A DNA stretch of 64,000 bases from Escherichia coli. Its GTDB lineage: Bacteria > Pseudomonadota > Gammaproteobacteria > Enterobacterales > Enterobacteriaceae. Made by a program: the position numbers and the translations under genes. The notes under the pieces are model-generated. The model ran no database searches. It saw only the letters and a program-made list of their open reading frames with translations, and was not told where the DNA came from. Positions 3,467 through 13,445 of this stretch are shown here, in pieces (the first letter of the stretch is position 1; every line of letters starts with the position of its first letter). Location: assembly GCF_003334785.1 (NCBI RefSeq), contig NZ_QOWV01000015.1; one strand, given 5' to 3'.

Positions 3467-3964
3467 TTAGTTTTGTGTGTCGAGGGTAGAGAGTTCTTTG
3501 TCGATAAAATACAGACCTTCGCCGCTTTTGCCTGCCAGGCTTAATTTATCAATAATCGATTTGAACAGTTTCTCTTCTTCATGCTGCTCAGAAACATACC
3601 ATTGCAGGAAATTAAATGTTGGGTAGTCCTGATTGGTCATTGCTGCATGAGCCAGTTCGTTAATTTTCTGGGTGATTAATTGTTCGTGTTTATAGGTTTC
3701 CTGGAATAATTCATCAAGTGAGGAATATTCAGCAAACGGAGATTCAACGGTATTAATACGCGGTAAATTGCCGGTATCAGTCAGATAATCAAACAGACGC
3801 TGCATATGCGTCATCTCTTCCTGGGCGTGACGGCGCAGGAACGCGGCAGCACCTTCGAAGGTATGATAGCTGCACCAGGCGCTCATTTGCTGATAAAGCA
3901 GTGAAGAGTACAGTTCCAGGTTCATCTGCTCATTAAGTTTTTCAATCATTTCTGGTTTCAGCAT
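3467..3964 (-). CDS. ftnA: Ferritin FtnA (iron storage)
   Basis: Translation [15 protein letters not shown]... (165 aa from the internal ATG of the 170-aa ORF) recognised as FtnA. Confidence 0.95.
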
Positions 3965-4135
3965 GATAGTGCTCCACAAAGGTTATATTTGTTGCTGTGG
4001 CGTCACTATAATTTGTTATTTTATTATTTGCAAAAGGTAAAATATAAACTTCAATTATTAAAAATACGAATGGGAATAAAACGCATTACCGCTATTTATT
4101 TAATCAGCGAAGATCCCCCTCGCTGATTAAAACAT

Positions 4136-4459
4136 TTAGAGAAAGACAGGGAAGGCGGAATGATGGCACTGATATGACAAAGTGAATTCCGTATTCAAAC
4201 ATAAGGAACCCGCAAAAAGGCTACAGTTGCCTACTGGCTGACCAAAGGGGATCGCGTGGGTATAGCCTTCCTGCTGGCATGCGCGATCGGCGATCCCGCG
4301 ACTGACATAATGATCGGTATGGGCATGCTGCAAAAAAGCCTGGTCATAAACCAACCGTACAATACCTGTTGCCGCGTCAACTTCGCTCACATGGGCCTGG
4401 CGAGTAACCGTACACCCCGCCAGCGTTATTAATGAAAGAGTCAGAATCAGAAGTCTCAT
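4136..4459 (-). CDS. yecR: Lipoprotein YecR
   Basis: 107-aa ORF with lipoprotein signal (LAGC lipobox); recognised as YecR. Confidence 0.88.
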   Translation of the reverse strand: MRLLILTLSLITLAGCTVTRQAHVSEVDAATGIVRLVYDQAFLQHAHTDHYVSRGIADRACQQEGYTHAIPFGQPVGNCSLFAGSLCLNTEFTLSYQCHHSAFPVFL

Positions 4460-4623
4460 GGTCCAGCCAGAAGAGTAAGAGAAAGCACTATTTTACGCGT
4501 TACAGCGCTGCGACAATGGCCGGAAAAGACGCCTGGCAGGCGCTATTTCTTGCCATCTGTAGGTGTCAGAAATGGGGGGGTTGTTTTTTGATTATCATTT
4601 TTATAACATTAAAGGGGTATTTA

Positions 4624-4639
4624 TGTGATTTGCATCACA
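4624..4639. promoter_or_regulatory. CRP binding site (azuC promoter)
   Basis: Perfect TGTGA-N6-TCACA (tgtgatttgcatcaca) about 90 bp upstream of the azuC start. Confidence 0.7.
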
Positions 4640-4721
4640 TAAAGATTGATTTTTGTGATGGTTGTCATATTATAAGCGCAAAGACAATAACACCTGTATA
4701 ACAAATGGTCGGAGTGCCGCG

Positions 4722-4808
4722 ATGAAACTGCGCAAAATCCTGAAAAGTATGTTCAATAACTATTGCAAGACGTTCAAAGACGTACCGCCAGGCAATATGT
4801 TCCGATAA
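4722..4808 (+). CDS. azuC: Small protein AzuC (28 aa)
   Basis: ORF translates to MKLRKILKSMFNNYCKTFKDVPPGNMFR, matching the AzuC small protein; too short for the supplied ORF track. Confidence 0.85.
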   Translation: MKLRKILKSMFNNYCKTFKDVPPGNMFR

Positions 4809-4810
4809 CA

Positions 4811-4838
4811 AAAAACCTGCTCCGGCAGGTTTTTTTGT
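4811..4838 (+). terminator. Rho-independent terminator after azuC
   Basis: Hairpin cctgctccgg-caggttt followed by a T-run. Confidence 0.7.
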
Positions 4839-4922
4839 GTCCTGATGACGGTGGATGTGACTATCGCTGAAGATGTGAAGTCGCTACTATAACGGCTTTC
4901 AAAATGCTATCAGGAGTTTACG

Positions 4923-5174
4923 ATGTCCCAGCCGCTGAATGCCGATCAGGAACTGGTTTCTGATGTGGTTGCTTGCCAGTTGGTTATCAAACAAATTCTG
5001 GATGTTCTCGATGTAATCGCGCCCGTTGAAGTTCGTGAAAAAATGTCCAGTCAGCTGAAGAATATCGACTTTAGTAACCATCCCGCCGCCGCAGACCCGG
5101 TCACCATGCGGGCAATCCAAAAAGCCATCGCGCTGATTGAACTCAAGTTTACCCCACAGGGTGAATCCCATTAA
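4923..5174 (+). CDS. yecJ: Uncharacterised protein YecJ (DUF2766)
   Basis: 83-aa ORF recognised as YecJ; followed by a hairpin terminator at ~5175-5210. Confidence 0.88.
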
Positions 5175-5252
5175 AAAAACCGCTGCTTCAAACAGATGAG
5201 GCAGCGGTTTCTCAAAACCTTCATCGGCGCAATGCATTAGCGCCGATGATGA

Positions 5253-5756
5253 TCAATGCAGCTGGTGTGACACGACATTCAGAACATGTTGGTCGGTCTG
5301 CACAGGGCACATACCCGCAAGTTTCGCACTGCGCACTTCATCAAGAATGGTTTGCAGCAACAGACCATCATGCTGCTGTTCTTTTTCCAGATCGCGCAGG
5401 AAATTGACGGTTGAATCATCATTCAGTTCTTTCGCTTCATCGGCTAACTGTGCCAACGTACTAGAACGTTGCTCGTATTCTTCCATCGTTTTTTGGAACA
5501 GTTCTTCCAGAGAGTTCAGTTTTTCACCGGGAACATCAATGGCTTTAACGATGGGGGTAGCGCCGACACTCTTCATAAAGTTAAACATGCGCATCATTTG
5601 GGTCACATTACTCTGTGCCTGGGCGCGAAGGAAAGTGGCGGTGCCGTTCAGACTCTGTTCAGAACACCAGTTACTCAGGTGAAGGTAGAGATTGGATGCG
5701 TAAAACTCGCGGTTCATTTGAGAGTTGAGTTTGAGAAGCATTCCAGCGGTTGCCAT
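5253..5756 (-). CDS. ftnB: Ferritin-like protein FtnB
   Basis: 167-aa ORF recognised as FtnB (YecI); ferritin fold. Confidence 0.92.
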
Positions 5757-6552
5757 ACCTAATATCCTTATATCCAGAAGTGGAGAGGTGCAAGATAAAT
5801 CAAAACACCATAATTACTGTTTGCAGAATAATTCCTTTCTGCCGGTCCGAAATGTGATCGTGGAGTCAATTCTGACGATGATCTGAAATAAGAATAACGT
5901 CTGAACGGGTATAAGAAAATGCTTAAATCATCAAGTTTATATATTTTTACATTTCATTGATGAAATCAATGTAACTGCAATGAATTTTAATGATAGTGCT
6001 TTTTGTATCTTGTTGATATTAATCAATGAATTTGAATTCATGATGAAATGATGATTTTATAAAAGGTTTTTTCATTTTTGCGAGATGGCTCTCATTATAC
6101 GTGTTCTGTTAATTAATGAGCACAGTGATAATTAATGGCGAAATGAATGGCGTGCATTTTCCACATCTTTGAGTTGCGGTTATTACACCATTTCAAAAAC
6201 TCAACGCCAGGTAATGCGGCCTATTGACTGGTTAAAAAGAAGACATCCCGCATGGGTACCAAAGACAACAAGGATTTCCAGGCTAATCTTATGGATTAAT
6301 CTGCTGTGCATTCGACAATTTGTCTGACAAATTGGCTTTCCCTTATGTCTTTTCCCGCTAAATTTATGCACGTTCTCACTGTAATTCTGCGATGTGATAT
6401 TGCTCTCCTATGGAGAATTAATTTCTCGCTAAAACTATGTCAACACGGTCACTTATCTTTTAGTTAAAAGGTAATGCTTTGTTTTCCGATTAATTTAACG
6501 AATGTCATTCGTTTTTGCCCTACACAAAACGACACTAAAGCTGGAGAGAACC

Positions 6553-7542
6553 ATGCACAAATTTACTAAAGCCCTGGCAGCCATTGGTCTGGCAGCCGTT
6601 ATGTCACAATCCGCTATGGCGGAGAACCTGAAGCTCGGTTTTCTGGTGAAGCAACCGGAAGAGCCGTGGTTCCAGACCGAATGGAAGTTTGCCGATAAAG
6701 CCGGGAAGGATTTAGGGTTTGAGGTTATTAAGATTGCCGTGCCGGATGGCGAAAAAACATTGAACGCGATCGACAGCCTGGCTGCCAGTGGCGCAAAAGG
6801 TTTCGTTATTTGTACTCCGGACCCCAAACTCGGCTCTGCCATCGTCGCGAAAGCGCGTGGCTACGATATGAAAGTCATTGCCGTGGATGACCAGTTTGTT
6901 AACGCCAAAGGTAAGCCAATGGATACCGTTCCGCTGGTGATGATGGCGGCGACTAAAATTGGCGAACGTCAGGGTCAGGAACTGTATAAAGAGATGCAGA
7001 AACGTGGCTGGGATGTCAAAGAAAGCGCGGTGATGGCGATTACCGCCAACGAACTGGATACGGCACGTCGCCGTACAACGGGTTCTATGGATGCGCTGAA
7101 AGCGGCCGGATTCCCGGAAAAACAAATTTATCAGGTACCTACCAAATCTAACGACATCCCGGGGGCATTTGACGCTGCCAACTCAATGCTGGTTCAACAT
7201 CCGGAAGTTAAACATTGGCTGATCGTCGGTATGAACGACAGCACCGTGCTGGGCGGCGTACGCGCGACGGAAGGTCAGGGCTTTAAAGCTGCCGATATCA
7301 TCGGCATTGGCATTAACGGTGTGGATGCGGTGAGCGAACTGTCTAAAGCACAGGCAACCGGCTTCTACGGTTCCCTGCTGCCAAGCCCGGACGTACATGG
7401 CTATAAATCCAGCGAAATGCTTTACAACTGGGTAGCAAAAGACGTTGAACCGCCAAAATTTACCGAAGTTACCGACGTGGTGCTGATCACGCGTGACAAC
7501 TTTAAAGAAGAACTGGAGAAAAAAGGTTTAGGCGGTAAGTAA
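6553..7542 (+). CDS. araF: L-arabinose ABC transporter periplasmic binding protein AraF
   Basis: Translation from MHKFTKALAAIGLAAVMSQSAMA (signal peptide) gives 329 aa recognised as AraF; RBS ggaga upstream. Confidence 0.96.
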   Translation: MHKFTKALAAIGLAAVMSQSAMAENLKLGFLVKQPEEPWFQTEWKFADKAGKDLGFEVIKIAVPDGEKTLNAIDSLAASGAKGFVICTPDPKLGSAIVAKARGYDMKVIAVDDQFVNAKGKPMDTVPLVMMAATKIGERQGQELYKEMQKRGWDVKESAVMAITANELDTARRRTTGSMDALKAAGFPEKQIYQVPTKSNDIPGAFDAANSMLVQHPEVKHWLIVGMNDSTVLGGVRATEGQGFKAADIIGIGINGVDAVSELSKAQATGFYGSLLPSPDVHGYKSSEMLYNWVAKDVEPPKFTEVTDVVLITRDNFKEELEKKGLGGK

Positions 7543-7611
7543 TTTGCCGGAAAAATTCCCCTCTGCATGATGCAGAGGGGGTGTGAACGACCAGTGATTC
7601 ACGGAGACGTT

Positions 7612-9126
7612 ATGCAACAGTCTACCCCGTATCTCTCATTTCGCGGCATCGGTAAAACGTTTCCCGGCGTTAAGGCGCTGACGGATATTAGTTTTGACTG
7701 CTATGCCGGTCAGGTTCATGCGTTGATGGGTGAAAATGGCGCAGGAAAATCAACTCTCTTAAAAATCCTCAGCGGCAACTATGCGCCAACCACGGGTTCT
7801 GTAGTGATTAATGGGCAGGAAATGTCCTTTTCCGACACGACCGCAGCACTTAACGCGGGTGTGGCGATTATTTACCAGGAACTGCATCTCGTGCCGGAAA
7901 TGACCGTCGCGGAAAACATCTATCTCGGCCAGCTGCCGCATAAAGGCGGCATTGTGAATCGCTCATTGCTGAATTATGAGGCGGGTTTACAACTTAAACA
8001 TCTTGGTATGGATATTGACCCGGACACGCCGCTGAAATATCTCTCCATTGGTCAGTGGCAGATGGTTGAAATCGCCAAGGCGCTGGCGCGTAACGCTAAA
8101 ATTATCGCCTTTGATGAGCCAACCAGCTCCCTTTCTGCCCGCGAAATCGACAATCTTTTCCGCGTTATTCGTGAACTGCGAAAAGAGGGGCGGGTGATCT
8201 TATACGTTTCTCACCGTATGGAAGAAATATTTGCCCTCAGCGATGCCATCACTGTCTTTAAAGATGGACGTTATGTCAAAACCTTTACCGATATGCAGCA
8301 GGTTGACCACGACGCGCTGGTGCAGGCGATGGTCGGGCGCGACATTGGCGATATCTACGGCTGGCAACCTCGTAGTTATGGCGAGGAGCGCCTGCGTCTT
8401 GATGCTGTGAAAGCACCAGGCGTGCGTACGCCAATAAGTCTGGCGGTTCGCAGTGGTGAAATTGTTGGGCTGTTTGGTCTGGTAGGGGCGGGGCGTAGCG
8501 AATTAATGAAAGGCTTGTTTGGCGGGACGCAAATCACCGCCGGTCAGGTTTATATCGACCAACAGCCGATCGATATTCGTAAACCGAGCCACGCCATTGC
8601 CGCAGGCATGATGCTCTGCCCGGAAGATCGCAAAGCGGAAGGCATTATTCCCGTGCACTCCGTTCGCGACAATATCAACATCAGTGCCAGACGTAAACAT
8701 GTGCTCGGCGGTTGTGTAATCAACAACGGTTGGGAAGAAAACAATGCCGATCACCACATTCGTTCGCTCAACATCAAAACGCCGGGCGCTGAGCAACTGA
8801 TCATGAATCTCTCAGGCGGAAATCAGCAAAAAGCCATTCTGGGCCGCTGGTTATCGGAAGAGATGAAGGTCATTTTGCTGGATGAACCTACGCGCGGCAT
8901 TGATGTTGGCGCTAAGCACGAAATATATAACGTAATTTATGCGCTGGCGGCGCAGGGTGTGGCGGTGCTGTTTGCCTCCAGCGACTTACCTGAAGTCCTC
9001 GGCGTTGCCGACCGGATTGTGGTGATGCGCGAAGGTGAAATCGCCGGTGAATTGTTACACGAGCAGGCAGATGAGCGTCAGGCACTGAGCCTTGCGATGC
9101 CTAAAGTCAGCCAGGCAGTTGCCTGA
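7612..9126 (+). CDS. araG: L-arabinose ABC transporter ATP-binding protein AraG
   Basis: [17 protein letters not shown]... with two ABC cassettes (Walker [10 protein letters not shown]); 504 aa. Confidence 0.96.
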
Positions 9127-13429: not shown

Positions 13430-13445
13430 TGTGATCTGCATCACA
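13430..13445. promoter_or_regulatory. CRP binding site of the flhDC promoter
   Basis: tgtgatctgcatcaca is a perfect TGTGA-N6-TCACA, ~260 bp upstream of flhD in an AT-rich regulatory region. Confidence 0.75.

Follow-up and report, generated by a model that had tools for sequence, protein, structure and literature searches.

The 796-bp AT-rich region between ftnB and araF of Escherichia coli probably comprises two control regions and a neutral spacer left by the loss of a DJ-1 family gene

At the araFGH promoter of Escherichia coli, Hendrickson and colleagues reportedly named two AraC sites in 1990/1992, araFG1 and araFG2, and found a weak −10 element and no −35 element; the order of elements is said to be AraC, CRP, polymerase, as described by Johnson and Schleif in 2000. 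In E. coli, mutation of araC silences an araF reporter (PMC8489885), and, as cited there from Chen & Gottesman 2017, araF is reported to be controlled by the small RNA Spot 42. A second araF promoter is recognised by sigma-S polymerase in vitro (PMC3141248).

The divergently transcribed neighbour, ftnB, has a 127-nt 5′ untranslated region that contains four GGA motifs; footprinting located three CsrA sites in it, of which the one on the Shine-Dalgarno sequence is the strongest, and CsrA represses ftnB translation in vitro (Pourciau et al., PMC6686035). ftnB is a listed member of the Cpx regulon, and a sigma-E promoter has also been cited for it (PMC9600279; PMC6686035). FNR binds at ftnB in vivo in E. 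coli (PMC2690998). In Salmonella, ftnB is a target of H-NS, which binds and represses it (PMC3212961).

Within the window analysed here, a 64-kb stretch of E. coli DNA, ftnB occupies positions 5253–5756 on the minus strand (ATG at 5756) and araF occupies positions 6553–7542 on the plus strand, which leaves a gap of exactly 5757–6552. The plus strand of the window corresponds to the minus strand of MG1655, and MG1655 coordinates equal 1992681 minus the window coordinate. The initial annotation described a long (~800 bp) AT-rich intergenic region with no assigned feature, and both parts of that description hold: the gap is 796 bp long with 35.1% GC (50.6% in the window), and no feature is annotated between araF and ftnB in the RefSeq record of MG1655 (NC_000913.3, 1986129–1986924) or in that of strain MLI023K1. 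Among all windows of 796 bp in the 64 kb, only 0.06% are equally AT-rich, the GC minimum falls at this gap, and its core at 5900–6130 has 26% GC. Bases 5600–6700 are 100% identical to strain MLI023K1, and this region was found in 5419 of 5426 complete E. coli genomes. The absence of assigned features is specific to GenBank-style annotation; the literature describes several regulatory elements in the gap.

In our assessment, the gap probably consists of two control regions, one for ftnB and one for araF, separated by a neutral middle that was left by the loss of a DJ-1 family gene. The ftnB side (~5757–6028) would comprise the leader, the core promoter, a CpxR-type box, and an FNR box, and CsrA bound to the 127-nt leader blocks the ribosome-binding site. 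The araF side (6264–6552) would comprise three AraC-type repeats, a CRP-like site, a weak −10 element, and a leader that serves as a Spot 42 target. The middle (~5966–6263) would be some 250–300 bases of freely drifting DNA at the place where the ancestral gene was lost; the loss, in the Escherichia ancestor, would have fused two intergenic regions, and the remainder would have drifted since.

The features on the ftnB side are as follows.
5757–5883, minus strand: ftnB 5′ untranslated leader, 127 nt, placed by the published leader length
5848–5846, minus strand: leader GGA motif 1, read from the sequence
5835–5833, minus strand: leader GGA motif 2, in the loop of a hairpin at 5842–5823 predicted by folding
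5775–5773, minus strand: leader GGA motif 3, read from the sequence
5767–5765, minus strand: leader GGA motif 4, within the Shine-Dalgarno sequence AAGGA (5769–5765), 9 nt before the ATG
5884–5919, minus strand: predicted ftnB core promoter, with −10 TATTCT (5896–5891) and −35-like TTTTCT (5919–5914)
5936–5950, minus strand: CpxR-type box GTAAAAATATATAAA, one mismatch to GTAAA-N5-GTAAA, centred ~60 bp upstream of the ftnB start
6013–6026, either strand: perfect FNR consensus box TTGATATTAATCAA, centred 136.5 bp upstream of the ftnB start

Taken from 5883 on the minus strand, the leader contains exactly four GGA motifs, arranged as in CsrA-repressed leaders: one sits in the loop of a hairpin and another falls within the Shine-Dalgarno sequence. 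Two Term-seq 3′ ends map within it, at MG1655 1986856(+) and 1986899(+) (Adams et al., PMC7815308). On the minus strand of the window these ends are 5825 and 5782, which places them 69 and 26 nt ahead of the ftnB open reading frame; they are the only curated RNA 3′ ends in the whole gap across the three growth conditions of that data set. Leader identity among Escherichia species is 93–99%, and a comparison of seven E. coli strains found no variable sites in the leader and promoter. A 33-codon open reading frame with a TTG start inside the leader (5869–5768) was considered as a gene and rejected: the substitutions seen between its aligned translations alter the amino acid, no Shine-Dalgarno sequence was seen before the TTG, and the frame is intact in Escherichia only because the leader itself is conserved.

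From the published leader length, the ftnB transcription start would lie at ~5883, and the −10 and −35 elements are placed relative to it by prediction. Promoter identity to the window is 0.84–0.93 in an interspecies alignment that sets E. coli beside four further Escherichia lineages at species level and one close relative, and two plus-strand blocks at the promoter, AAATAAG.ATA and TAAGAAAA, are invariant from Escherichia through Citrobacter to Enterobacter. The CpxR-type box lies within a block conserved across genera and has the tandem form found at CpxR-activated promoters; we infer that this exact box is the CpxR site.

The FNR box is the sole match without mismatch to the FNR consensus in the 64-kb window, and it is presumably the published far-upstream FNR site. 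Of seven E. coli strains, four have one or two mismatches in the box, and the closest relative of E. coli has one; in the other Escherichia species no match was found within one mismatch. Given this polymorphism within E. coli and the lack of a match in other Escherichia, the box appears to be a young and weakly constrained site. Its centre, at −136.5 from the documented start, does not fall at the spacings of FNR-dependent promoters (−41.5 for class II; −61.5 and further helical turns for class I); a class II reading would require an unmapped start near 5978, with TAAAAT at 5989–5984 as its −10 element. The box illustrates how drifting DNA can give rise to a perfect consensus that is bound with little effect on regulation.

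The araF side of the gap covers ~290 bp (6264–6552) and carries three direct repeats of AraC type (A, B, and C) on the minus strand in a 21-bp register, which we located with the half-site consensus TAGC-N7-TCCATA (17 bp) and direct repeat starts 21 bp apart. Its features are as follows.
6269–6306, minus strand: AraC-type repeat A, CAGCAGATTAATCCATA-AGAT-TAGCCTGGAAATCCTTG, with half-sites at 6290–6306 (1 mismatch) and 6269–6285 (2 mismatches)
6316–6334, either strand: perfect 19-bp palindrome CAATTTGTC-T-GACAAATTG, found by inverted-repeat scan (MG1655 1986347–1986365)
6344–6381, minus strand: AraC-type repeat B, CAGTGAGAACGTGCATA-AATT-TAGCGGGAAAAGACATA, with half-sites at 6344–6360 (2 mismatches) and 6365–6381 (3 mismatches, placed by eye)
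6394–6431, minus strand: AraC-type repeat C, TAGCGAGAAATTAATTC-TCCA-TAGGAGAGCAATATCAC, adjoining the promoter, its register taken from the direct repeat shared with B
6438–6453, either strand: CRP-like site TGTCAACACGGTCACT, two mismatches to TGTGA-N6-TCACA, between the AraC repeats and the −10 element
6472–6477, plus strand: probable araF −10 element TAATGC preceded by GG, within CTAATGC.TTGTTTT; CTAATGCcTTGTTTT is conserved in 80 genomes
6485–6552, plus strand: araF 5′ leader, with conserved CCCTAC (6518–6523) and Shine-Dalgarno sequence GGAG (6543–6546)

The 330 bp that precede araF in 79 Enterobacteriaceae loci were aligned with those of the window. Across these ~80 Enterobacteriaceae the araF-side elements are kept, with the exception of the CRP-like site. 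The blocks of repeats A, B, and C are kept at 80–100%, positions 6379–6437 are almost invariant, and repeat C is the most conserved stretch of the gap, with at least 90% identity to the window base at nearly all positions. Repeats B and C are themselves related: TTTCCCGCTAAATTTATG of repeat B recurs 71 bp downstream in repeat C, and an 18-mer, TTTC(C/T)CGCTAAA..TATG, is common to both at the same distance of 71 bp. Repeat C is probably the araFG1 reported by Hendrickson et al. (1990/1992). Matches to a single AraC half-site number 38 in the window against 39 expected by chance, so the AraC assignment rests on the paired register and on conservation. In the interspecies alignment, AraC-block identity to the window is 0.82–0.91.

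CRP-like matches with two mismatches are no commoner in the window than expected by chance, and the site upstream of araF is kept in Escherichia and poorly conserved in other genera. Based on the position of the −10 element, the araF transcript probably starts near 6484–6487; a generic sigma-70 scan reported no promoter at araF, in agreement with the weak −10 element and missing −35 element reported for this promoter. The predicted duplex between Spot 42 and the araF leader has an energy of −26.9 kcal/mol, compared with −18.7 ± 3.6 kcal/mol for shuffled leaders, which agrees with the reported control of araF by Spot 42. Within the leader, CTACACA at 6520–6526 is a candidate −10 element for the second araF promoter. 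A conserved-looking 40-codon open reading frame at 6345–6467 was rejected as coding: it covers the AraC sites, its entropy at the three codon positions (0.77/0.73/0.70) shows no third-position excess, and it is truncated or lacks the ATG in many genomes.

These assignments bear out the initial annotation on two points, namely that the araFGH promoter uses only part of the gap (the ~290 bp at 6264–6552) and that further regulatory elements are present, mainly the leader, core promoter, CpxR-type box, and FNR box of ftnB. The idea of more regulation was right mainly because ~560 of the 796 bp are taken up by elements of ftnB (promoter, leader, and FNR site) together with the upstream AraC repeats. 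The AraC half-sites, which the initial annotation had left unplaced, are now found on the minus strand, where they form three direct repeats in 21-bp steps.

The palindrome between repeats A and B lies ~160 bp upstream of the expected araF start. Its core, TTGT-N3-ACAA, is kept in most of the 80 genomes, and its three central bases and flanks are variable; three Klebsiella loci extend the palindrome to 23 bp, and in several distant genera a non-palindromic variant, TTCATCATACATAT, replaces it. It did not fit the consensus of CRP, FNR, Fis, IHF, LexA, MetJ, Mar/Sox/Rob, or LacI-family regulators, and to our knowledge no regulator has been assigned to it at araFGH. The palindrome contains the 11-mer TTGTCTGACAA, which is a footprinted operator of the GntR-family repressor LhgR of Pseudomonas putida (PMC8206213). 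We tentatively raise the possibility, doubtful on present grounds, that the palindrome is the operator of an as yet unassigned regulator of the GntR/FadR type. If it is, such a regulator would provide a third transcriptional input to the high-affinity arabinose transporter, besides AraC and CRP, and this input would be common to most Enterobacteriaceae.

Between the two control regions, one further feature remains.
~5966–6263, no strand: fast-evolving AT-rich spacer, at the site of a DJ-1 family glyoxalase III gene in relatives

In the interspecies alignment, identity to the window is 0.47–0.66 in two central segments, compared with 0.60–0.70 at the four-fold sites of ftnB and araF in the same pairs, which indicates that the centre evolves at about the neutral rate. 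Across seven E. coli strains, the same two segments vary at 9.5 and 9.4 sites per 100 bp, the AraC block at 4.0, and the araF core promoter and leader at 1.7; all seven variable sites of the AraC block fall in its less conserved stretches, outside the near-invariant 6379–6437. At the level of the species, 60 of 5417 E. coli genomes have at least 99% identity to the window over 5966–6263, compared with 3516 over 6264–6552. The centre is single-copy in E. coli, positions 6029–6263 have no detectable homology outside Escherichia, and the only tandem or direct repeats in the centre are short ones of chance size. A few short islands in the centre, for example GT[GT]ATAAT[TA]AA at 6125–6135 and TTGATA at 6013–6018, are common to all Escherichia, and they could be weak functional sites. 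Judged from its sequence, the middle (~5966–6263, especially 6029–6263) appears to be without sequence-specific function, and its AT-richness may reflect unconstrained drift.

Comparison of 80 AraF-encoding loci, one genome per species, suggests how this spacer arose. In 45 of the 80 loci, a full-length gene of 185 codons lies between ftnB and araF on the araF strand, and in 41 of these 45 its stop codon is 288–335 bp before the araF ATG. Its product scores just above the cut-off of the DJ-1 family glyoxalase III model TIGR01383 (131.8 bits; cut-off, 131.25). The gene is present in Citrobacter, Enterobacter, Leclercia, Lelliottia, Klebsiella, and Buttiauxella, and also in Phytobacter, Pseudescherichia, Cedecea, Franconibacter, and others; no Escherichia locus among the 80 has it. 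Decay is visible in some lineages: only codons 139–183 are left in Citrobacter sp. R56, the match in Leclercia adecarboxylata falls in two overlapping pieces, which suggests a disrupted gene, and the gene is cleanly deleted in several Enterobacter species and in one Citrobacter metagenome-assembled genome (MAG). The partial and complete deletions in Citrobacter and Enterobacter lineages appear to be independent.

In relatives that carry the gene, AraC repeat A starts directly after its terminator. An nhmmer profile of the ftnB–DJ-1–araF interval aligns only to positions 4–272 and 508–796 of the E. coli gap, and the profile positions that have no E. coli counterpart are the promoter-proximal spacer of the DJ-1 gene, the gene itself, and its terminator. 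In place of that interval, E. coli has 235 bp (gap positions 273–507; window 6029–6263) that match nothing in the profile. The spacers on the two sides of the gene in C. koseri, ~490 and 318 bp, add up to ~808 bp, close to the 796-bp gap in E. coli. A pseudogene remnant of the DJ-1 gene was sought in the E. coli gap and rejected: tblastn gave E = 62, and the nhmmer profile found nothing in 6029–6263. The only thing shared with the DJ-1 gene is thus its position, which makes the spacer a scar rather than a pseudogene, and the loss is accordingly an inference from synteny and phylogenetic distribution. On that basis, the Escherichia ancestor most likely lost the DJ-1 gene, and the ftnB–araF gap would be long because the loss joined the ftnB–DJ-1 spacer to the DJ-1–araF spacer.

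An alternative is that the centre has been kept for its composition, as a platform for H-NS nucleation and silencing or as an insulator, such that ftnB would stay low until FNR, Fur, or CpxR counteract H-NS and the divergent promoters would be isolated from each other. Anti-silencing arrangements exist, for example at ftnA, and the far-upstream FNR site of ftnB resembles them; this site binds FNR and is reportedly unable on its own to induce ftnB. A platform of this kind would also fit the GC content of the centre (25–36%), its nearly constant length across Escherichia despite heavy substitution, and the binding and repression of ftnB by H-NS in Salmonella (PMC3212961). However, the FNR box is polymorphic within E. 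coli, the Enterobacter and Citrobacter lineages without the DJ-1 gene have spacers that differ in length and content, and AT-richness could equally arise by neutral drift. For Fur, a box scan gave 2 matches at 12 or more of 19 positions, compared with 3.4 expected in composition-matched shuffles, and a Fur box was therefore rejected. We regard selection for composition as unlikely. Under the reading that we prefer, two control regions with a neutral middle, H-NS would likely coat the AT-rich middle and the ftnB promoter, judging from their composition and from the Salmonella data.

Horizontally acquired AT-rich DNA could instead have replaced the DJ-1 gene in the Escherichia ancestor, as might be suggested by the lack of detectable homology between gap positions 273–507 and this region in other genera and by a composition far below the genome average. 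We consider this improbable: a phage collection gave no match to the centre, and the matches in a plasmid collection fall in E. coli records of megabase size or several hundred kb, apparently mislabelled chromosomal DNA, such that no genuine plasmid match was found. In addition, the centre is present in one copy, no flanking repeats, integrase, or insertion-sequence ends were found, and at neutral rates a segment of such age would be unrecognisable anyway.

The initial annotation had also suggested that the AT-rich remainder may hold a small RNA or a peptide that is not annotated. Several open reading frames of 23–56 codons, a GATAAT hexamer (6127–6132) common to most Escherichia, and the tendency of AT-rich DNA to fire spurious promoters would speak for such a gene. 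For the centre this idea found no support. None of the central open reading frames (23–52 codons) is conserved, as all of them lose the start codon or gain stops or frameshifts in sister species, some already in the closest relative; an intact frame with a coding pattern in relatives, as expected of a small protein gene, was found nowhere in the gap, including the frame at 6345–6467 over the AraC sites. Nor did the scans of the centre reveal the marks of a small RNA gene, namely its own promoter, a terminator or 3′ end, and conservation. The promoter and terminator predictions that had been proposed as a check returned, at the scan threshold, no promoter-like sites in the gap for generic sigma-70 (3.0 expected) and a single terminator-like match, which lies inside an AraC repeat and not in the centre. 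RNA folding of the two central segments was no better than that of shuffles (z = +0.85 and −0.29), and an Rfam scan of 3500–8000 at E ≤ 1 gave no match in the gap. A further transcript in the centre likewise finds no support in the curated Term-seq set, which lists no RNA 3′ end in MG1655 1986100–1986799 under three growth conditions. With a centre that diverges at the neutral rate, a hidden gene is very improbable.

In the best-studied bacterial genome, the preferred reading, two control regions and a neutral middle, accounts for a gap of 796 bp that had looked empty, which is useful for annotation: with the gap explained, there is no need to mine it for hidden genes. It matters little to biology at large. 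The regulatory features of the gap were already known, and the origin of the spacer by gene loss and the orphan palindrome add only a little to them. Both go beyond the descriptions that we found, the one as an account of the length of the gap and the other as a deeply conserved palindrome of GntR-operator form in the araF control region. The loss of the DJ-1 gene would be a clean example of how long AT-rich spacers arise.

Compared with the published regulatory region of ftnB, nothing material differs here: the length of the leader, its four GGA motifs (one of them on the Shine-Dalgarno sequence), the CpxR-type box, and the FNR box far upstream agree with it. What is added is that the FNR box occurs only in E. 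coli and the closest relative of this species, and that it varies among E. coli strains. The araF side occupies the same locus as the known araFGH promoter and shares its order of AraC repeats, CRP-like site, and −10 element, half-sites opposite in orientation to those of araBAD, and no recognisable −35 element; however, three conserved AraC-type repeats are present, whereas two named AraC sites are reported for araFGH, and an additional conserved palindrome lies between repeats A and B. That palindrome contains an 11-mer identical to the LhgR operator of P. putida and has the form of GntR/FadR operators (NyGTNxACNy), with the GT and AC positions kept and the centre variable, although no cognate regulator is known or encoded near it. 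As for the spacer, E. coli retains no recognisable fragment of a pseudogene; what it has in common with gene-loss scars is that most related genera have the gene in this position, that some lineages keep parts of it, and that the Escherichia spacer drifts neutrally.

In most Enterobacteriaceae, a DJ-1 family glyoxalase III gene lies between ftnB and araF, as at positions 2125-2682 of locus L009 and at 44 other loci in our set of 80 araF loci from related species; it is absent from this position in all Escherichia. In Citrobacter sp. R56 (locus L027), the gene is reduced to a partial remnant corresponding to codons 139-183, and the DJ-1 match in Leclercia adecarboxylata (locus L028), which consists of two overlapping pieces, was also counted as a partial remnant. 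Several Enterobacter species have undergone independent clean deletions of the gene.

Within the ftnB-DJ-1 spacer of Enterobacter species, we identified a near-consensus FNR box, TTGAG(C/T)TAAATCAA, located as follows:
about 394 bp upstream of the start codon (ATG) of ftnB in loci L010, L012, L013 and L021
about 396 bp upstream of the ftnB ATG in locus L016
The E. coli FNR box occurs at a different position upstream of ftnB, and this difference in placement suggests that the sites were gained independently.

Published Term-seq data place two RNA 3' ends on the minus strand within the ftnB leader, at 5825 and 5782 (69 nt and 26 nt upstream of the ftnB ORF, respectively). The first falls in the 3' arm of a hairpin whose loop bears a CsrA-type GGA; together, these positions suggest premature termination or processing, which might be linked to CsrA binding. 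Another Term-seq 3' end, detected in all three conditions, is antisense to araF (MG1655 1985131(+), corresponding to window position 7550, minus strand), at the site of the following feature:
7557-7581, GC-rich hairpin between araF and araG
For transcripts arriving from the opposite direction, this hairpin may thus serve as a terminator.

Outside the ftnB-araF gap, the known dual-function azuC/azuR (IsrB) gene occupies about 4680-4838 on the plus strand, where Rfam returned only sub-threshold matches to unrelated families (STnc370 and rsmX). A perfect CRP consensus, TGTGATTTGCATCACA, lies closely upstream at 4624-4639; a second perfect CRP consensus in the window is TGTGATCTGCATCACA, at 13430-13445.

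Two further elements flank or overlap the AraC sites upstream of araF:
6316-6334, perfect 19-bp palindrome CAATTTGTC-T-GACAAATTG, between two AraC repeats
6345-6467, plus strand, 40-codon ORF beginning MSFPAKFMHVLTVILRCDIALLWRINF, with apparent conservation in many genera
We rejected the ORF as coding, as it overlaps the AraC sites, lacks a codon-position pattern and exists only in truncated form in many genomes. The ORF represents a pitfall for small-ORF finders based on conservation. The 9-mer AGGTAATGC at 6469-6477, which contains the probable araF -10 element, has a second copy at 6209-6217 in the neutrally drifting centre of the gap; in 796 bp, chance alone would produce about one repeat of this kind.

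Sequence comparison showed that the palindrome core, TTGT-N3-ACAA, is kept in most of the 80 Enterobacteriaceae. As far as the literature could be searched, we found no regulator assigned to this palindrome. Its form is that of a putative GntR-type operator, and the 11-mer of the Pseudomonas LhgR operator is identical to sequence within it.
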